Of a DNA stretch of 64,000 bases, positions 44,511-53,364 are shown piece after piece; the first letter of the stretch is position 1, and each line of letters opens with the position of its first letter. Both the position numbers and the translations under genes were made by a program. The stretch is from positions 4,704,001 through 4,768,000 of the forward strand of contig OZ257156.1 in NCBI GenBank assembly GCA_965279375.1, given 5' to 3'. The DNA comes from Gemmatimonas sp. (lineage in GTDB: Bacteria; Gemmatimonadota; Gemmatimonadetes; Gemmatimonadales; Gemmatimonadaceae). Below the pieces are notes generated by a model, which made no database searches, had not been told where the DNA came from, and saw nothing but the letters and a program-made list of their open reading frames with translations.

Positions 44511-47500
44511 ATGGCTCGTCCTCGTGCTCGTCTTGCCGTTCCGGTTCCCTGGCTCGTCGACGGCGGCATTCCGCCCACGCGCGATGCCCAGTCGCGCCCT
44601 TTGCTGCGTTTGCAGACGCTCGGGGCTTCCGTGGTGCAGTGCGGCGAGCTGCGCATCGGGCCGTCGGCCGGAGTGCTCTTCGCCATTCTCGTGCGACTCA
44701 CGTATGCGCCGGGCATGCAGGTCGCGCGTGATGAGCTGGTGCATCTCGTCTGGGGCGGGCCCGACTCCGCGCGTCGCCGTGCCAGCTTGCGACAGGCGCT
44801 CTACAAACTGCGGAGCGTTGGCGTGCGCGTCGTGCTCGAGGGCGGGATGGTGCGCCTCGATGCCGCGCAGGTGGCGCGCACGTTTGCCAGTGACCGGAGC
44901 GCGACGCACTTCGAGCGTGATGTCACGCGAGGACACGAGCCGTTCGGTCCGTTCCTGCCGGGCTACGCTGCGCCAACTGCCGCGTTCGACGAGTGGATGG
45001 AGACTGAGCGTGAGAGTATTCACGCGGAGATCCGTCGCGTCCTCGTGGAGCAGTTGCGTGCGCGACGCGAGCGTGCCGATTGGACCGGGGCGGAGGCGTT
45101 GGCGCGATGGCTGTTGCAATTCGATCCACTGCACGAGGATGCGACGCTGACGCTGGCCGAGTGCACCATGCTCGCGGGGGCCAAGCTCGAGGCCATTGCG
45201 ATCCTCGATCGCTATCTCGCGGAGATCGGGCCCGGTGCGGGCGATGTGCGTCTTCCCGCCGCGCAGCTGCGGCGTCGCTTCGTGGAGGCGACACGCGGCA
45301 CGCTCTCCTTTGCGCCGACTGAACGGCACTTCGTGGGGCGCGAGCAGGAGCTGGCCGATCTGACGCTGGCGATGCGTCGCGCGCGATGGCGGGATGGGAG
45401 CGCCGTGCTGTTTCACGGTGCGTCGGGCATCGGCAAGTCCCGGTTCGCGCACGAGGTGACGAAGGTCGCGACGATCGAGGGCGTGCGCGCACTGCACGCG
45501 TGCTGTCGGGAGAGCGATGGCATGCGCACGCTGGCCCTGTTCCATGACATGCTGCCCGAGTTGCTGTCCATTCCGGGCGCATTGGGATGCACGCCGGAAA
45601 GCATGGCCACGCTACAGCGTTTAGTGGGACCGCCACCACGACGCAGCGTGGGTCAGTCGATCGCGCCGGCGAGCGGAGAGACCGCGCGAGGCGAGCCCGC
45701 GGAACCGGCGATTGGGGACGCCGTCGCTGTGGATGCGGACGAAGGGCGCAACGCCAGCGTCGGTGCTGCATCCGAAGCCGAGCTCCCGCCGGTCGCGGGT
45801 GAGCACGACGGGGGCGAGTCAGTCACACCGCGGGAGCCGCTGCCGATGGCCGGATCGATTCGACGGGCGTTCGTTGACCTGATGGCCGCGATCTCTGACG
45901 AACGGCCCGTGCTGCTGGTGATCGACGACGCGCATTGGATGGACCTGGCGTCCTGGGATGTGTTGGCGGACATCATCGATCGCATTTCGGCGCTGCGACT
46001 GGTGGTTCTGGTGATGTCGCGTGAGCCGCACGCGCGCCCCACGCGTCCGGAGCGTGTGCCGACGACGCTCCGGGTACGCCCGATGCCACCCTTGTCGGCC
46101 GAAAGCGGTGCGCAGCTGACGCGCTTGATCGGGAACGACCTCTCCGCGCCGGTAAGTGATTCGCTCTGCGCGTGGTTCGTGGAGGCGAGCGAGGGGAGTC
46201 CGCTCTTTCTTCGCTCGTTGGTGCAGCACTGGATCGAGACCGGCGAAGCGGGCGGCGTTCCGCCAACGCTGGTTGAGGTCATCGAGCAGCGGCTGACGAA
46301 GTTGTCGCCGGAAGCGCTACGGGTTCTGCAGACGGCGGCGTTGCTGGGGGAGGAGGCGAGTGTGGAGAGCACTCAGCATGCGCTCGATTTCTCAACTGCG
46401 AACATTCTGGACTCGTTAGATGAGCTTGCCCGCGCAGGGATGCTCAGAGCCTCTGAGCTCGACCGACTCGTCGCGCAAGAGCTGACCGGTAAGGCCGCAC
46501 TTCGCCGACTCACCGAGGCTTCTCGACGGCTACTCAGCCTGCGAGTCGCTGAATCGATTCAGACACGAGCGAATCTGTGTGCGCTTGGCGACGGCGGAAG
46601 ACTCGCTGCTGCAGTCGTACGAAACTTCTTGGGAGCGGGGTTACACGAGCGCGCGACTACGACCGCAGTCGATCTGGCGGAGACGTTTTTACGAAGCGGG
46701 CTTCCTGCTGAGGCACTACTCGTTTGCGAGTGCGGCGAAGGATTTGTACGCTCCGGTGTCTCGGGGGCGCGACTACGACGACTCGAGATGGAGGCGCTCT
46801 ATCAATGCGGCTGCCATTCTCGGCTGTTGACCGTCGCGAGCGCCAGCCAGACTGCATTCAGTGTGACGTCCAAGTGGGACTCGCACTATCCTTTGGATGT
46901 CCTGCGATATATCGAATCGAGTTCCACGAGCGGTCGAATCACTGACTACGGCGATCTGTGCGCGCGCGCCGTACTGATCGCAGAGAGCGAGATCATCCCT
47001 CCAGACATCAGACTGCGGGCGTCCATCACCGCAATTCGCGTTGCGAGCCACGGTATCGACTCCGCACTACCTGAGAGAGCGTATAGGGCGGCGACAAACG
47101 TGGCAGAGCGCACCGCAAACCAATTCGATGCTCAGGTCACGGCGGCACTTTACTACCACACGGCGTTTGGCAGGCCGGAGGCCGCGATCGATGCTGCAGA
47201 GTGCATAGTCGAACGCATTGCGCCGACCTTGCCAGGTCCCGAGAAGATCGCCTTGCTCGCAGATGTTGCCTACGCGTTTCGCGTCTTAGGCAGGACCGAT
47301 GACGCACTCCGCTTGTTCGAACACGTTCTTGCGGACGCGAAGTCCGACAGAATCTGGCGCACAGCTGGAGTGGCAGCTTGGTACTTGTCACTTATGGCTC
47401 TCGACAGCGATGCAGAAATCGCGCTTGCGAAGCAGTGGATCGAGCAGTGTGAGGAGCTAGCGGTATCAACTCAGGATGAGCTACTGCTCCATATCGCCGC

Positions 47501-47885
47501 TCAGCAGAGCGCGAGGATCGCGACGCTGGAAGGCGACATCAACAGGGCGCTCTCTCGCAACTCGGCATCGAAATGGCTGTTCGTTCAAGCCTCGCACCCG
47601 AAGCGTGTCGCGTCAGAACTCGCCTTGGACCTGTTCATCGCGATCACCACGCGAAATCAGCGCTCTATCGTGGAATTGCTCCCATCGGCCGCGAACAGCC
47701 TCGCGAACTTGAGTGGCGCGCTTGGTCAGGATTTCTTGGCAACACAGGTAATACGAGGGAGTCTCGCGGCCGGGAAGCCGGAGGAGGCGCGTCGCGTCTG
47801 CGGTAGCTATTTGGCTCGGCGAAGAGAACAAAGTCGACATCCCGGCTACTTGATGTCGGCGGTCTCCGCGGCCGCTGCGAGTTAG
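44511..47885 (+). CDS. SARP/BTAD + P-loop ATPase (STAND-like) + helical-repeat regulator
   Basis: N-terminal wHTH-like region (RDELVHLVWG...SLRQALYKLR), BTAD (DPLHE), FVGREQEL, Walker A GASGIGKS, Walker B LVIDDAHW.D, GSPLF, TPR-like C-terminus. Confidence 0.82.
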   Translation: MARPRARLAVPVPWLVDGGIPPTRDAQSRPLLRLQTLGASVVQCGELRIGPSAGVLFAILVRLTYAPGMQVARDELVHLVWGGPDSARRRASLRQALYKLRSVGVRVVLEGGMVRLDAAQVARTFASDRSATHFERDVTRGHEPFGPFLPGYAAPTAAFDEWMETERESIHAEIRRVLVEQLRARRERADWTGAEALARWLLQFDPLHEDATLTLAECTMLAGAKLEAIAILDRYLAEIGPGAGDVRLPAAQLRRRFVEATRGTLSFAPTERHFVGREQELADLTLAMRRARWRDGSAVLFHGASGIGKSRFAHEVTKVATIEGVRALHACCRESDGMRTLALFHDMLPELLSIPGALGCTPESMATLQRLVGPPPRRSVGQSIAPASGETARGEPAEPAIGDAVAVDADEGRNASVGAASEAELPPVAGEHDGGESVTPREPLPMAGSIRRAFVDLMAAISDERPVLLVIDDAHWMDLASWDVLADIIDRISALRLVVLVMSREPHARPTRPERVPTTLRVRPMPPLSAESGAQLTRLIGNDLSAPVSDSLCAWFVEASEGSPLFLRSLVQHWIETGEAGGVPPTLVEVIEQRLTKLSPEALRVLQTAALLGEEASVESTQHALDFSTANILDSLDELARAGMLRASELDRLVAQELTGKAALRRLTEASRRLLSLRVAESIQTRANLCALGDGGRLAAAVVRNFLGAGLHERATTTAVDLAETFLRSGLPAEALLVCECGEGFVRSGVSGARLRRLEMEALYQCGCHSRLLTVASASQTAFSVTSKWDSHYPLDVLRYIESSSTSGRITDYGDLCARAVLIAESEIIPPDIRLRASITAIRVASHGIDSALPERAYRAATNVAERTANQFDAQVTAALYYHTAFGRPEAAIDAAECIVERIAPTLPGPEKIALLADVAYAFRVLGRTDDALRLFEHVLADAKSDRIWRTAGVAAWYLSLMALDSDAEIALAKQWIEQCEELAVSTQDELLLHIAAQQSARIATLEGDINRALSRNSASKWLFVQASHPKRVASELALDLFIAITTRNQRSIVELLPSAANSLANLSGALGQDFLATQVIRGSLAAGKPEEARRVCGSYLARRREQSRHPGYLMSAVSAAAAS

Positions 47886-49207
47886 GCCACTGCCTGCGTT
47901 TTCTGGCCCTTTGCTCTTTCGATGATCTGAGTGAAGGACAGAATGCTGCTCTGCGAGTCGGCTGGGGAGAACAGTTGCGGATACAGCGGACTGCTTAGAA
48001 GCGCGTCGCAAATCATAGGATCGAACTGCCTACCCCGAAACTTGACCAATTCAGCGCGAACCTCTGTCTCCGTCATTGCCTTTCGATACGCTCGATCGCT
48101 GGTCATCGCGTCGATCGTGTCTGCAAACATGATGATTCGAGAACCCAGTGGAATTGCATTTCCTGCAATCTTGTCAGGGTAGCCAGTACCGTCCCAATTC
48201 TCATGGTGGTGTCTCACCGCGGGCACGATATCGTGAAACTCCGACAACTTTGCAACGAGCTCAGCGCTCTTGATCGGGTGGAGCTCCATTATCGCGCGCT
48301 CTTCATTGGTTAGACGACCAGGCTTGCTAAGGATTGGGCGAAAAATCTCGTGAATCTTGCCCACGTCATGCAGTAGAGCGGCGATTGCGATTCGCTCGAC
48401 CTCCGGACCGGAGAGACCAATCGCACGCGCAATAATTCTCGAATATCGAGACACGCGCTGCGAATGACCGGAGGTGTACGGGTCGCCATACTCGACGGTG
48501 TGCACGAACAGCTCAAGCAATTCTCTGTTCGTCGTCGCCAGCTGGTGCCGCACTTGGTAGAGCACTCGAAAGCCAACAGAAAGCACGGTCATCGAGAGAA
48601 ATCCCCAAACTCCCCAGTCGACGAATGCTCTCGCAAACAAGTAGACGATCGGAATCGCGACAAGATCGAGCAAGAGCGACTGAGAGTTTCCAGTATACCA
48701 ACAGCGAACGATGCTCTTGCTTTCAGCGATGCCGACCGCGGTTGCGACGGAGAAAGTATTTACGAGAAGAAACGCGAGGACCGCAGCGGAATGCGGCACC
48801 AACTCAAAGCGCACGTCCAGCTGAAGCGACTTGCCGCCGAGCGACAGGTAGAGCAGGCTCGCAACTGCGGCGGCGAGGACGAACTGAGCGATGTTAAACA
48901 GCCGCTTGATCGTCGGCTTGGGCCGGCGTAGTTCGCCGAAGGCCGCCCCAAGCCCGACCATTGCAGCTGTAGCCCACGACGGGTAGAGGACGAGCGCCGT
49001 CAGATAGGGAATGAAGGAAATCTCTCCCAGCGTATTTCCTTGCACTCGGTACCGGAATTGCGAACCAAGTAGTCCGAGCAGCGCGTAACAGAAGGATCCC
49101 AATAGCAGCGCGACGTCAATCGAAGGCTGCTGGAGATACAGACAAGCCAGCGCGGCAGCCGCAGCTGCCACGATCGCATACACGTAGGCGATCACGCTTG
49201 TCTTCAT
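47882..49207 (-). CDS. Membrane-anchored HD-GYP phosphodiesterase with multi-TM sensor domain
   Basis: About 7-8 TM segments, then DPYTSGHSQRV, LLHDVGK, HHHENWDGTGYP, ADTIDAMTSDRAYR, QFDP. Confidence 0.92.
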   Translation of the reverse strand: MKTSVIAYVYAIVAAAAAALACLYLQQPSIDVALLLGSFCYALLGLLGSQFRYRVQGNTLGEISFIPYLTALVLYPSWATAAMVGLGAAFGELRRPKPTIKRLFNIAQFVLAAAVASLLYLSLGGKSLQLDVRFELVPHSAAVLAFLLVNTFSVATAVGIAESKSIVRCWYTGNSQSLLLDLVAIPIVYLFARAFVDWGVWGFLSMTVLSVGFRVLYQVRHQLATTNRELLELFVHTVEYGDPYTSGHSQRVSRYSRIIARAIGLSGPEVERIAIAALLHDVGKIHEIFRPILSKPGRLTNEERAIMELHPIKSAELVAKLSEFHDIVPAVRHHHENWDGTGYPDKIAGNAIPLGSRIIMFADTIDAMTSDRAYRKAMTETEVRAELVKFRGRQFDPMICDALLSSPLYPQLFSPADSQSSILSFTQIIERAKGQKTQAVA

Positions 49208-49246
49208 GAGTCTTGCAAAGTGGCGCCCCCGCCGTCCTAGCTCAAA

Positions 49247-49318
49247 TCAACCCCAGACTTTAGCATCCGCCAAAGCGAACGACATAATCGCGTTCACGAG
49301 CTGGGCCAGAATTCCCAT
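49247..49318 (-). CDS. 23-aa small peptide MGILAQLVNAIMSFALADAKVWG (absent from the ORF track)
   Basis: ATG at 49318, TGA at 49249-49247, Shine-Dalgarno GGAGGTGA 6 nt upstream, ends 39 bp before the HD-GYP start. Confidence 0.78.
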   Translation of the reverse strand: MGILAQLVNAIMSFALADAKVWG

Positions 49319-49515
49319 GTTGCGTCACCTCCCATCGGGGTAAGTCACGCACGTCCCGCTCGGGGATCGCACGTGCTTTAACGAGGTTGGCTCCGCTCCT
49401 CAAACTTGGCCTGCCCGCTCAGCTCCGCTCTACCGGGAGACGGGGACGTTTTGTGAGTATCGTCTATGGCTGACGATGAAGGGTGAACGGCATGGGCGCG
49501 TGAACCACGCCCGGA

Positions 49516-50421
49516 TTATCGATCAAGTTGCATCCAGCGATTCGTTGCATTGAGCACTGCGAGCACACTGCTCGTCTCAGCGCTCTCCTCAACTTCACAG
49601 CTTCCGGTCAAGAGCACTGTGTCGCGACCGTCGCGCGCCGCAATGCTGACAAAGACGAACTCTCGATCAAACGCGTCCACCACTTGCGATCCTTCCAATG
49701 TCAACGCGCGCGCCCGAACCGACGTCGGCCCCAACGCTTCCACAATCGCCAATACCGTCGCACGTGCCGCGAGATCAATGCGAGAACGCTCGCTCGATTG
49801 ACCCTTCGCCTCTCCGGCAAATGCCCGCGCACCCTGCGACAGCGTCACTCGACACGTCAGCCCGCGCTCACGCGACCGACGCAACTCCACATCCTCGAAC
49901 ACCAACACTCGACGCGCCAGACCGCCCGCCTCACGGCTCCCGTCCGCACCCTCGCGCGCTAAGCTCGGCTCCGGCGCCCGCGATGAGGCCGCCGCCGGCA
50001 TGGAAGCAGACGCCGCGGACAGCGATGGCGCAACCGCTCCGGCGGCAAATGACTGGGACGAACTAGAGGGCGATGCCGACCCGGAAGGGGAGGCCGGCGG
50101 AATGAAGACCGTCGTCGGCGACTTGGCCGCTGACGGCACATCGTTCGCACGATTCGGGTCCAGCGTCGTCGCGATCGAGATCTTGCGGTGATTCACGCGC
50201 AACCCGAGCTGCGCAATCAAGGCACTCTCGATATTCCGCACCGTCTGCTTCGGAGCCACGGCGTCCGTCGTCAAGACGTGCACCTCGTCGATAGCCCCCG
50301 CGTCACTCGGCACAATCCGAACAGACAATACGCCCGGGAGCGTGGCGATCAGCTCCTCGGCGCGACGGATGGGAAGGACACTACCCGCGATCGCGCCTGA
50401 CGGCGCAAACGGCGGGTTCAT
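49516..50421 (-). CDS. Uncharacterised two-domain protein with Ser/Pro/Ala linker
   Basis: N-domain IATLPGVLSVRIV...IDEVHVL....PKQTVRNIESAL..LGL.V.HRKISIA. C-terminal alpha/beta domain ending LTGS........AVLNATNR, possibly LeuA-regulatory-like (from memory). Confidence 0.8.
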   Translation of the reverse strand: MNPPFAPSGAIAGSVLPIRRAEELIATLPGVLSVRIVPSDAGAIDEVHVLTTDAVAPKQTVRNIESALIAQLGLRVNHRKISIATTLDPNRANDVPSAAKSPTTVFIPPASPSGSASPSSSSQSFAAGAVAPSLSAASASMPAAASSRAPEPSLAREGADGSREAGGLARRVLVFEDVELRRSRERGLTCRVTLSQGARAFAGEAKGQSSERSRIDLAARATVLAIVEALGPTSVRARALTLEGSQVVDAFDREFVFVSIAARDGRDTVLLTGSCEVEESAETSSVLAVLNATNRWMQLDR

Positions 50422-50529
50422 GCCGAAATTCACTGGAATCGACAGGAAGGACTCCGCAGGTGGATCGGACCAGCGTTGGTCGATCTGTTCTCGACTGTCA
50501 CAATATGTGGTCGAGTTCGCTGGTCGGCA

Positions 50530-50545
50530 AGCCAGAATAGTGCCC
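50530..50545 (-). promoter_or_regulatory. sigma54 (-24/-12) promoter
   Basis: Minus strand GGGCACTATTCTGGCT, with GG and GC at the exact spacing of TGGCAC-N5-TTGC. About 110 bp upstream of the 50421 start, next to a sigma54 activator gene. Confidence 0.65.
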
Positions 50546-50581
50546 AAACCATTGTATGACATGCAGCTACCAGATTGCACC

Positions 50582-52255
50582 TCAACCTTCGTCGAGATCC
50601 AGCCCTGCCCCCCCCTCGTATTCTCGCAATTTGCGATACAAAGTCCGCTCGCCAATCCCCAATCGCTCGGCCGCTTTACGTCGATTCCCGCTCGCATCCC
50701 GGAGCGCCGCCTCGATGGCCGTGCGCTCGATCTCGGCCATGGTCATCCCAGGCCCCAAGGTGATCACGGTCGGCGGCGGCTCCTCATCACGCGGCGCGAT
50801 CCCGCGCAGCCCCCCCATCACAGAGCCGATCTCCACCAAGCCAGCTGCCGCGCCAGCCGTCCCGCTGCGAACGTCCCCCATCCACCCCGGCGCCATCATG
50901 CGAGGGTCCACGCGCGGATCCACCCGCGACTCCTGATCCATCCGGCGCCGCAACTCCTCCACCTGCAGCTTCAGCTCGACAAGCGAGCGTACGATAAACT
51001 CGAGCTCACGCCCCTGCGCACGCTCACCCTCGCGCACGATCGGACCGACATGGACGGGCAGTAGCCGACGTCCGCCCGCATCGCGGATCGCGCGAGGAAT
51101 GTCCTCCGCCACGATCTCGCGCCCGGGCGCCAGCACGACCATGCTCTCGACCAGATTGCGCAGCTCACGCACGTTGCCGGGCCACGGATACTCGACCAGC
51201 AACGCCAATGCGTCCGCCGACAGCCCATGAAACGGTCGATCATGCATCCGTGAGAATTCGGCGACGAATCGACGCACCAAGAGCGGAATATCGTCACGCC
51301 GCTCACGCAGAGGCGGCAGATAGATCCGCAGCACATTGAGCCGGTAGTACAGGTCGGCGCGGAAGCCACCCTCCTCCACATGCTCGCGCAACGGACGGTT
51401 AGTCGCCGCCACCACGCGCACGTCCACCGGAATCGCCTGCCCGCCGCCCACGCGCGTCACTTCACGCTCTTCGAGCACGCGCAACAGCTTCACCTGCGTG
51501 CTCGACGGCACCTCACCGATCTCGTCGAGAAAGAGCGTGCCCGTGTCGGCCAACTCGAACCGGCCAAGCCGACGCTCCGCCGCGCCCGTGAACGCGCCCT
51601 TCTCGTGCCCGAACAGCTCGCTCTCGAGCAACGTGTCCGGCAGCGCGCCCACGTTCACCGCGATGAACGGCTTGCCACGGCGCGGACTCAAGCGATGAAT
51701 CGCGCGCGCCACCAGCTCCTTGCCAGTGCCGCTCTCACCCTCGATCAGCACCGTGCTCGACACCGGCGCGATCTGCTCGATCTTCACCAGCACTTCGCGA
51801 ATGGCCTCCGACTCACCGACCAATCCGGTCAGCTGCGCGAGTCGCTGCCGCTCGAGCCGCCGACGGATCCCGTCCACGACCTCGTCGAGCGCGATCGGCT
51901 TGCTCCAGGTCTCCACGTAGCCCACGTCGCGCACACGCTCCTGCACCACAGGATCGCTCACGTCGGTGAAGCCCACCACCGGCACACCATCCCACAGCTG
52001 CTGCCGCACCAACGCCACGTTCGCGCTGTCGAGCAGCGCGCCCGTCAGCACGAGCACATCCGGACGCGCGCGACGCAGATCGCCGCGCACGTCGTCCATC
52101 GGCGAAATCGTGACGGTGGTGATCCCCAACCCTTCGAGCGCCGCATTGAGCCGCACAGCCGGCTCCACGTCGGTCATCAAAATCGCGACGACGCCCGACT
52201 CGTTGTCCTCCGTACTGCCGCGCCGCACGACCGCGGTGCGCGACCGTTCGCTCAC
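50582..52255 (-). CDS. sigma54-dependent activator (bEBP) with degenerate receiver and Fis HTH
   Basis: [63 protein letters not shown] overlap start. Receiver reads PDVLVLTG, with Thr in place of Asp. Confidence 0.93.
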
Positions 52256-53364
52256 GCCTTCCCCGCCCGCTTGTAGAAGGGCAACGCGACGACACGCGCC
52301 GGGACCGTCTTGCCGCGAATGTCGAGGTCGAACGTCGTCCCGACCACCGCCGCGGCCGCTGGCAAATAGCACGTACCGATCGGGATGCCGAGCGTGGGAC
52401 TCATGGTGCCGCTGCGCACTTCGCCGAAACGCACGCCACCGTAGGTCACGCCGTGGCCGTGCCGCGGAATGGCTCGTTCGTCGATCGTGAAGCCAACCAG
52501 CTTGCGATCCGTGCCTTCGGTGTGCTGCCGCGCGAGCACATCACGACCGAGGAACGGCTCCGACTTGCCGAGCTTCACCAGCCACGAGAGACCGGCCTCG
52601 ATCGGCGTCACCGCATCATCCAGCTCGTTGCCGTACAGGCACAACCCGGCCTCGAGACGCAGCGTATCTCGGCAGCCCAGCCCCGCTGGTACCACCTTGC
52701 CGGTGGCCATCAGCGCCGACCAGATCGTGCCCACATGCTCCGAGGCGCAGTACAACTCCCACCCCAGCTCACCCGTGTAACCGGTGCGCGAAATGATGCA
52801 CGGCACGCCTGCGACGGTGCCTTCGGTGAACCAGTAGTATTTCACCCCGCCCAGCGGCACGCTCGACAGCGACTGCACGATTGCAGGAGCATCAGGCCCC
52901 TGCACGGCCACCAGCGCCGTCGCGTCGGACACATCGACCATCGAGCAATCGAATCCCTCGATGTTCGCCTTAAGATGCGCGATGTCCTTGTCCTTGTTGC
53001 TCGCGTTGATCACGAGCATGAGCTGGTCAGCCATGCGATAGACGAGCAGGTCATCGACGATGGTGCCATCCTCGCGCAGCAGCGTCGAGTACTGCACCTG
53101 CCCAACCGCAAGCGCCGCGACGTCGTTGCTCGTGACGGAATTGACGAACCGGATGGCGTCCGGCCCCTTCACCATCACCTCGCCCATGTGCGACACATCG
53201 AACAGGCCGCACGCCTCGCGCACGGCCTTGTGCTCCGTGGAAATGCCCTGCGGATAGTTGACCGGCATTTCGTAGCCGGCAAACGGGACGATCTTCGCGC
53301 CGAGCGCGACATGAACGTCGTGGAGCGGAGTGCGCTTCAGCGCACCGTCAGTCGTAGCAGTCAT
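52252..53364 (-). CDS. gcvT: Glycine cleavage system aminomethyltransferase T
   Basis: RTPLH..H, FAGYEMP, FDVSHMG, SRTGYTGE, GLGCRDTLRLEAG..LYG. Confidence 0.96.
   Translation of the reverse strand: MTATTDGALKRTPLHDVHVALGAKIVPFAGYEMPVNYPQGISTEHKAVREACGLFDVSHMGEVMVKGPDAIRFVNSVTSNDVAALAVGQVQYSTLLREDGTIVDDLLVYRMADQLMLVINASNKDKDIAHLKANIEGFDCSMVDVSDATALVAVQGPDAPAIVQSLSSVPLGGVKYYWFTEGTVAGVPCIISRTGYTGELGWELYCASEHVGTIWSALMATGKVVPAGLGCRDTLRLEAGLCLYGNELDDAVTPIEAGLSWLVKLGKSEPFLGRDVLARQHTEGTDRKLVGFTIDERAIPRHGHGVTYGGVRFGEVRSGTMSPTLGIPIGTCYLPAAAAVVGTTFDLDIRGKTVPARVVALPFYKRAGKA

Follow-up and report, generated by a model that had tools for sequence, protein, structure and literature searches.

The locus analyzed here lies in a 64,000-nucleotide stretch of the genome of a Gemmatimonas species (the window), where the minus strand reads the Shine-Dalgarno (SD) sequence GGGAGGTGA, a six-base spacer, an ATG at 49318, 23 codons and a TGA ending at 49247. 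The neighbors of this micro-ORF encode a sigma54-type activator, an uncharacterized two-domain protein (hereafter the upstream protein), a MASE9-HD-GYP protein, whose gene follows the micro-ORF stop after 39 nt, and a STAND ATPase (Table 1). Two features went unremarked in the initial annotation, namely the MASE9-HD-GYP gene downstream and the folded RNA that surrounds the micro-ORF.

Table 1. Features of the micro-ORF locus, with positions in the window
Feature	Position	Strand	Description and basis
STAND ATPase/TPR protein, 1124 aa	44511-47885	+	Converges on and overlaps the end of the MASE9-HD-GYP gene
MASE9-HD-GYP protein, 441 aa	47882..49207	-	Pfam, motifs, model, fold, charge bias
P1 closing helix, 3' arm	49224..49240	-	Duplex test, folding
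Structured RNA, ~225 nt	49224..49448	-	Encloses the micro-ORF; fold, covariation; candidate discrete stable mini-mRNA
Micro-ORF	49247..49318	-	23 aa, MGILAQLVNAIMSFALADAKVWG; amphipathic helix and D-x3-W-G tail
Shine-Dalgarno GGGAGGTGA	49333-49325	-	Partly paired in predicted folds
Hairpin	49349..49376	-	GAGC loop (TAGCG loop in other lineages); covariation
AGCG(G/A) repeats, four (49429, 49419, 49397, 49360)	49356..49429	-	Candidate protein-binding sites
P1 closing helix, 5' arm	49430..49448	-	Duplex test, folding
Small hairpin directly 5' of P1	49460..49476	-	Conserved in genus
Uncharacterized two-domain protein	49516..50421	-	Predicted fold, co-occurrence; candidate AGCG-RNA binder
Sigma70-like promoter pattern TTGCCG-17-CATATT	50502..50530	-	Ahead of the three-gene unit
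Sigma54-type activator	50582-52372	-	Upstream of the three-gene unit; syntenic at 18/20 relative loci

A relative of the STAND ATPase/TPR protein was found at the same position in 13/20 loci, and the GC content dips to 54-60% across 46500-49500. The TTGCCG-17-CATATT pattern was detected at 13/20 relative loci against 0.02 expected per 8.5 kb, the pattern having been derived from these same loci, and it fell below threshold in one other search. A sigma54 promoter before the three-gene unit was rejected as it was not conserved among the relative loci.

The SD of the micro-ORF is complementary to the 16S 3' end of the same genome. Only 11 sites with GGAGGTGA placed 4-9 nucleotides before an ATG occur in the 5.3-Mb genome, 4 of which precede ORFs of 10-50 codons; this rarity by itself is no proof of a gene. 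The proof is conservation. Because the same SD, 22-23 codons and a near-end Trp were found at every genus locus with upstream DNA, the micro-ORF is a genuine, conserved and unannotated gene. The near-perfect SD that the initial annotation had placed before a 23-codon ORF was thus borne out by the coordinates, the 16S complementarity and the conservation, and the ribosome-binding site, length and Trp whose conservation it proposed to check are all kept in the genus. The element is present in a single copy per genome. Annotation mostly misses the gene, since 9/10 looked-up peptides were absent from a 15-billion-protein collection, and a profile search of NCBIfam gave no match to the peptide.

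Within Gemmatimonadota, 66 loci were sampled, 59 of which carried MASE9; 3 of these lacked upstream DNA, and all 56 that could be scored had an ORF of 16-35 codons, preceded by an SD and ending a short way upstream of the start of MASE9 (the ORF pick at L047 is doubtful, and L043, from an unpublished genome, was excluded from later counts). As an independent anchor, a model of the upstream RNA was searched against 81 family genomes, of which 52 matched, and 49/58 matches were examined. The micro-ORF and MASE9 were both present at 38/38 RNA-anchored loci with at least 300 nt of downstream DNA; among the rest of the 49, 10 stop at a contig break and 1 that was missed by the script has both. This set shares two loci with the 56-locus set. 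Contig breaks in or just past the RNA-peptide element were noted at 10/49 loci (L293, L297, L300, L306, L307, L314, L315, L318, L326 and L338).

Selection at the protein level was indicated by a dN/dS of 0.39 over 20 gap-free genus ORFs, compared with 1.13 and 1.57 in the alternative frames, which carry stops in 18/20 and 12/20 of these ORFs. W22 and D/E18 are each present in 20/20 genus peptides. Additionally, Leu7 uses a single codon in all 20 ORFs, a sign of RNA constraint within the reading frame. Across 92 distinct peptides, with a family length range of 15-35 aa, Trp is among the last three residues in 84 and an acidic residue lies 4-7 from the end in 63. Residues 2-17 have a mean hydrophobicity of 0.63 and a moment of 0.28, and polar positions are kept within the helix (Q/E6, N/S/D9 and S13), so that of the amphipathic or hydrophobic helix claimed previously the amphipathic character stood and uniform hydrophobicity did not. 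The near-terminal Trp and the membrane-seeking character of the product were supported as well; the Trp is conserved and a signaling role is likely.

Relatives in other phyla were collected through the upstream protein, for which the best 80 of 496 loci were examined, spanning Bacillota, Actinomycetota, Chloroflexota, Sumerlaeota, Armatimonadota and others. Amongst these best 80, MASE9 lies downstream at 64, the sequence ends early at 7, and other genes follow at 9, where the upstream protein occurs without the RNA or MASE9 alongside. The small ORF was present at all 64 MASE9 loci (63 by script, 1 by eye). Judging from their composition, the peptides of these phyla look like signal peptides, with a basic N-region (59/64), a hydrophobic core and a small-small-Ala motif (63/64) followed by a mostly aromatic tail of 2-9 residues. 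At 51/66 other-phyla loci, MASE9-HD is followed by a gene for DUF5317, a membrane protein in which two Asp are invariant; it was not found among 61 genomes of the present order, and an ESM Atlas search with it returned nothing. DUF5317 as an LspA homologue was not supported (profile comparison probability 0.4%, weak Pfam hit in 2/37). Three lipoprotein signal peptidase II genes, two tandem and one divergent, were noted at G000:C1:3501490-3502505 and 176815-177222, a pattern common across the genus. In a Natranaerobius plasmid record (L068:2606-4404), the MASE9-HD-GYP and DUF5317 genes are frame-split, and the peptide and RNA look intact.

For actinobacteria, 70/245 matches were examined (30 best and 40 hand-chosen), 69 with upstream DNA. 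At the 46 MASE9-HD loci a peptide was recognized by eye in 43 (2 merely probable) and none in 3; the script found 31 peptides, one of them spurious. Amongst MASE9 proteins without HD-GYP, an adjacent peptide was found in 3/23, one of which precedes a MASE9-histidine kinase (L189), and this rate is close to the chance rate of the script (106/1400). The RNA pattern was present at 26/46 MASE9-HD loci, against a chance rate of 48/1400 and among related genomes; the upstream protein is encoded in all 26 of these genomes, whereas 17/20 loci without the pattern lack it in the genome. In sister-family genomes, the upstream protein was near the locus in 5/5 tested. By these counts, which are drawn from related genomes, the RNA co-occurs with the upstream protein and the peptide with MASE9. 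Identical tandem peptide copies, each with its own SD, were observed at L164, L169 and L218 (the last with an assembly gap), and some actinobacterial loci have tandem copies without the structured RNA. Because the gene is duplicated and persists without its RNA frame, we infer that its product acts as a peptide. The peptide ORFs of L205, L206, L207 and L209 have no ATG, GTG or TTG near the SD, and an ATA or other non-standard start is likely there.

The structured RNA that encloses the micro-ORF is closed by P1, with the core of the 3' arm 14-23 nt past the micro-ORF stop and the end of that arm 17 nt upstream of the MASE9 ATG. Poor alignment of the 3' arm caused RNAalifold to overlook P1, and a duplex test of cognate versus swapped arms was therefore used. 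Cognate arms paired at -35.6 kcal/mol versus -27.0 kcal/mol for non-cognate arms across 51 Gemmatimonadota loci, and at -32.3 versus -21.9 kcal/mol across 61 other-phyla loci; 0/20000 permutations gave as good a cognate-pairing excess, kin not being independent. The hairpin at 49349..49376, whose loop holds the fourth AGCG(G/A) repeat (49360), has two-sided changes at 7/10 pairs, with 0/500 shuffles as high. Whole-region fold z-scores were modest (-0.77 and -1.65). The SD has a mean unpaired probability in predicted folds of 0.50 here and 0.34 across 49 loci, and blocking the AGCG repeats in folding increased SD access at 6/49 loci and decreased it at 11/49, with no consistent change. The core of the RNA (AGCG repeats, covarying hairpin and partly paired SD) recurs across phyla, and no Rfam family matched, either over 49000-50800 of the window (E of 5 or below) or at the RNA element in 8 other loci. 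A stretch of CTCTTTCACAA was noted upstream of P1 in L031, L034 and L037, which we take to resemble the boxA antitermination motif of rRNA leaders.

Contigs identical to the window at 49230-49427 and 49270-49431 were present in two metatranscriptome runs from two studies, and an RNA-library contig of a relative maps to 49290-49437, with DNA-like runs covering the whole stretch. These contigs were retrieved using this sequence, and the missing cover of the flanking genes was not counted as evidence; they provide a weak hint that the ~225-nt element is a discrete abundant RNA.

The model of the upstream protein (pLDDT 74) has an N-domain that resembles cation-diffusion-facilitator C-terminal domains (CDF-CTD, Z 9.1) and a C-domain similar to the amino-acid-binding regulatory domain of LeuA/CimA (3f6g, Z 9.2, rmsd 3.4, 110 aligned), for which Foldseek returned 3fig (E 2e-5) and then tandem dsRNA-binding domains. 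An ESM Atlas search with the protein matched unnamed clusters only. We infer that it binds the AGCG RNA. At L158, L162, L168, L205, L207 and L209, further AGCG(G/A) repeats lie beyond P1 and cover the ribosome-binding region of the sensor, as if the same protein controlled translation of the sensor too. A second, stand-alone LeuA-like C-domain is encoded elsewhere in genomes G037, G041, G057, G116 and G208, some of which also have a receiver-like gene separating the upstream protein from the RNA.

The downstream gene is the sole MASE9 gene of the genome and a member of the MASE9-HD-GYP phosphodiesterases (T. maritima TM1467, S. venezuelae HdgA), matching PF20972 with 33 bits against a cut-off of 24.3, together with HD_5, and with intact catalytic motifs GHSxRV, LLHDxGK and HHExxDGxGYP. 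MASE9 was detected in 90/201 genomes of this phylum and in 101/151 actinobacterial genomes (these tallies, the 26/46 count of the RNA pattern and the 81-genome RNA search include a few unpublished genomes), and no relative was found on viral contigs. The domain was predicted with a pLDDT of 95 and models as an ECF S-component fold: its six-helix core superposes on S-components (4hzu_S, Z 12.7, rmsd 3.7, 162 aligned), 14 of which scored Z 10.0-12.7 with the next match at 7.2. These Z values are within the chance range for helical bundles, the match list being uniform however, and the best Foldseek E was 0.02 only; the likeness by itself shows no function. One extra helix flanks the core on each side. 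Basic residues are in L3, L5 and both termini, L3 and L5 having 3.7 and 2.4 K/R compared with 0.04-1.2 in the opposite loops. With HD-GYP located in the cytoplasm and L3 and L5 both basic, the fold is apparently inverted, the side of the S-type pocket facing the cytoplasm, a topology read from charge and the number of helices. N105 and N150, both invariant, are in the pocket half.

A sensor use of this fold has been reported for the 5TMR-LYT kinases YpdA and BtsS, S-component-fold receptors (PMC11109136) that MASE9 resembles in having the six-helix core and an extra N-terminal helix. In these receptors the cavity opens outward and H6 runs to the cytoplasm (PMC11109136), whereas the further C-terminal helix and opposite charge bias of MASE9 make it appear inverted. 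The main text of PMC11109136 mentions neither MASE nor HD-GYP. Ligand binding within the membrane was proposed for MASE9 by Galperin and Chou, the ligand being unknown (10.1101/2021.11.05.467447), and S. venezuelae hdgA mutants had no phenotype, for which the authors suggested that the activating signal was missing (PMC6205966). The accessible parts of both papers make no mention of an upstream small ORF or RNA.

Altogether, these observations suggest, with a probability of roughly 0.55, that the intact amphipathic peptide is a dedicated partner of MASE9, a ligand or regulatory subunit that would set phosphodiesterase activity, with its supply controlled by the RNA and its binding to the sensor as a candidate interaction; the peptide is the best candidate for the signal or partner of this sensor. 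The upstream protein, the RNA with its peptide and MASE9-HD-GYP would be made as one transcript, from which the P1-closed segment would be excised, or at which the transcript would end, and would persist, so that the peptide would be in excess over the sensor. The upstream protein would bind the AGCG repeats and gate the translation or stability of the RNA, perhaps being gated itself by an amino acid via its LeuA-like domain. In Gemmatimonadota the peptide may lie uncut as an amphipathic helix in the inner leaflet, its Trp tail docking in the pocket that this inverted S-component fold would present to the cytoplasm and thereby switching the HD-GYP c-di-GMP phosphodiesterase. The ORF-MASE9 coupling (56/56, 38/38 and 64 of the best 80 upstream-protein loci), the dN/dS of 0.39, the tandem and RNA-less copies and the peptide gene before a MASE9-histidine kinase count for such a partner, as do the S-component fold of MASE9 with its apparently inward pocket, the intramembrane ligand binding proposed for this domain and the co-occurrence of the RNA pattern with the upstream protein. 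Counting against it, a Trp that is not universal (84/92) and a length of 15-35 aa are loose for a specific ligand, an adjacent peptide is missing at 20/23 non-HD-GYP MASE9 and 3/46 MASE9-HD loci, and 9 of the best 80 of 496 upstream-protein loci have neither RNA nor MASE9. The inward pocket agrees with an amphipathic peptide that is not exported and whose N-terminus is acidic or neutral; the signal-peptide-like forms of other phyla suit it less, as their tail would be outside, away from that pocket.

The strongest alternative, and still an unlikely one, is a cis-acting leader, in which translation of the ORF or stalling at its Trp would control P1 and hence the read-through or translation of MASE9-HD-GYP, the peptide being a by-product. 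The covariation of P1 (51 and 61 loci) and the position of its 3' arm, which begins just past the micro-ORF stop, favor such a leader, but a ribosome modeled at that stop opened the MASE9 start region at only 10/49 loci and not here (0.50 to 0.50), the folding being equilibrium and not co-transcriptional. No well-placed SD precedes the MASE9 gene here, as a leader would have it, whereas 46/61 other-phyla loci have an SD-like sequence beyond the stem, the 3' arm is frequently pyrimidine-rich and not an SD, and the MASE9 start is far from P1 at several loci. A U-rich tail after P1 (28/61 other-phyla loci) and the single Leu7 codon (20/20) are likewise in its favor; tandem and RNA-less peptide copies and a variable Trp-to-stop distance argue against it. 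P1 as a simple mask of the ribosome-binding site was not supported, having failed most tests (opening at 10/49 loci, not here, in an equilibrium model); P1 may have a terminator-like or processing role. Trp-sensing attenuation was rejected, given one Trp codon, 8/92 peptides without Trp and the absence of amino-acid genes downstream. A leader function and a peptide that acts as partner of MASE9 are compatible and can both hold.

Signal peptidase I requires small residues at -3 and -1. The initial annotation had likened A-L-A to a signal-peptidase A-x-A site, and the peptide could be an exported pheromone precursor, the helix being a leader and cleavage after A17 freeing DAKVWG to be sensed outside, which we consider improbable. 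Small residues do occupy -3 and -1 here (A15-L16-A17), and the rule is followed in 27/45 scoreable Gemmatimonadota peptides, but many sister-family peptides have Phe at -3 and a literal A-x-A is found in only 2/20 genus peptides. A basic N-region (net charge at least +1) was found in 0/20 genus peptides, whose helix has a polar face, against 59/64 in other phyla, where the small-small-Ala motif (63/64), the short, mostly aromatic tail and DUF5317 after MASE9-HD (51/66) also favor export. With DUF5317 not found in the 61 genomes of this order and without detectable LspA relation, and with the MASE9 pocket apparently inward-facing, release of DAKVWG by signal peptidase is unlikely here, and the intact membrane helix, also raised in the initial annotation, is favored over the cleaved form, as a helix with a polar face.

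SHP and ComS are short hydrophobic peptide pheromones, and ComX carries an isoprenylated Trp. Like these and ComX, the micro-ORF is a small gene beside a membrane sensor, with a Trp near the C-terminus and an acidic residue opening a short tail; unlike them, it differs in length and is accompanied by no ComQ and no histidine kinase/response regulator pair, and its product has no basic leader in this lineage. The ComX precursor has 52-73 residues, and comQ, comP and comA are adjacent on the same strand in ComQXPA (PMC4008528). The comparison with ComX-type pheromones made previously was therefore not supported: W22 of 23 is near the C-terminus, but the product has 23 aa, the adjacent genes are other than comQ, comP and comA and the receptor is not a histidine kinase. 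That no modifying enzyme is encoded nearby was correct, a ComQ-like neighbor being absent. A Pfam search of the genome for ComX gave no match, the control being likewise silent. A type I toxin-like or membrane-active peptide, silent in its folded mRNA and linked to MASE9-HD-GYP by co-regulation alone, is very unlikely: type I toxin mRNAs share the strong yet partly paired SD, the 5'-3' long-range pairing and the short amphipathic product, but this element is in single copy per genome, fixed before MASE9 across phyla and in conserved synteny rather than a mobile context, with no antisense partner seen.

A peptide partner of MASE9 would have parallels in MgrB and SafA with PhoQ and AcrZ with AcrB, where a small membrane protein modulates a sensor or a transporter. 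As with these, the product is very short and hydrophobic, and its proposed site of action is a membrane protein within the bilayer; the comparison is one of concept. The target here differs, being a c-di-GMP phosphodiesterase, and the gene is fixed before its target, within a structured RNA. In mgtQ-mgtB, a leader ORF reportedly unmasks a downstream start, and TRAP and CsrA are repeat-binding attenuation proteins. Similarly, a short ORF is found here in a folded leader, with a repeated motif, one copy of it looped, near a paired SD. Unlike in mgtQ-mgtB, P1 closes the whole RNA and mostly leaves the downstream SD uncovered, and unlike for TRAP or CsrA, the motif is AGCG(G/A), GGA is not required and the candidate binder has an unrelated fold.

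Tentatively, and as a possible extension, the module may form an undescribed cross-phylum circuit, in which a stand-alone protein with LeuA-regulatory and dsRBD-like features would read a metabolite and bind the AGCG repeats of a stable mini-mRNA that yields a peptide; this peptide would serve, within the membrane, as ligand for an inverted S-component receptor that governs the breakdown of c-di-GMP, and would be processed as a signal in the phyla that bear DUF5317. Within this four-part module the micro-gene is real, conserved and undescribed; in the literature searched, which includes few subscription journals, neither the peptide nor the RNA was found described, nor was an S-component identity of MASE9.

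MASE9 sensors are widespread, no signal is known for them, and the single member studied so far gave no phenotype. With a partner peptide encoded in the genome, the question of the signal becomes directly testable in tractable hosts. If true, the turnover of c-di-GMP would be tied to a peptide signal and an inward-facing S-component receptor would be added to those known, and an unnamed protein family would gain a role together with a new RNA motif.
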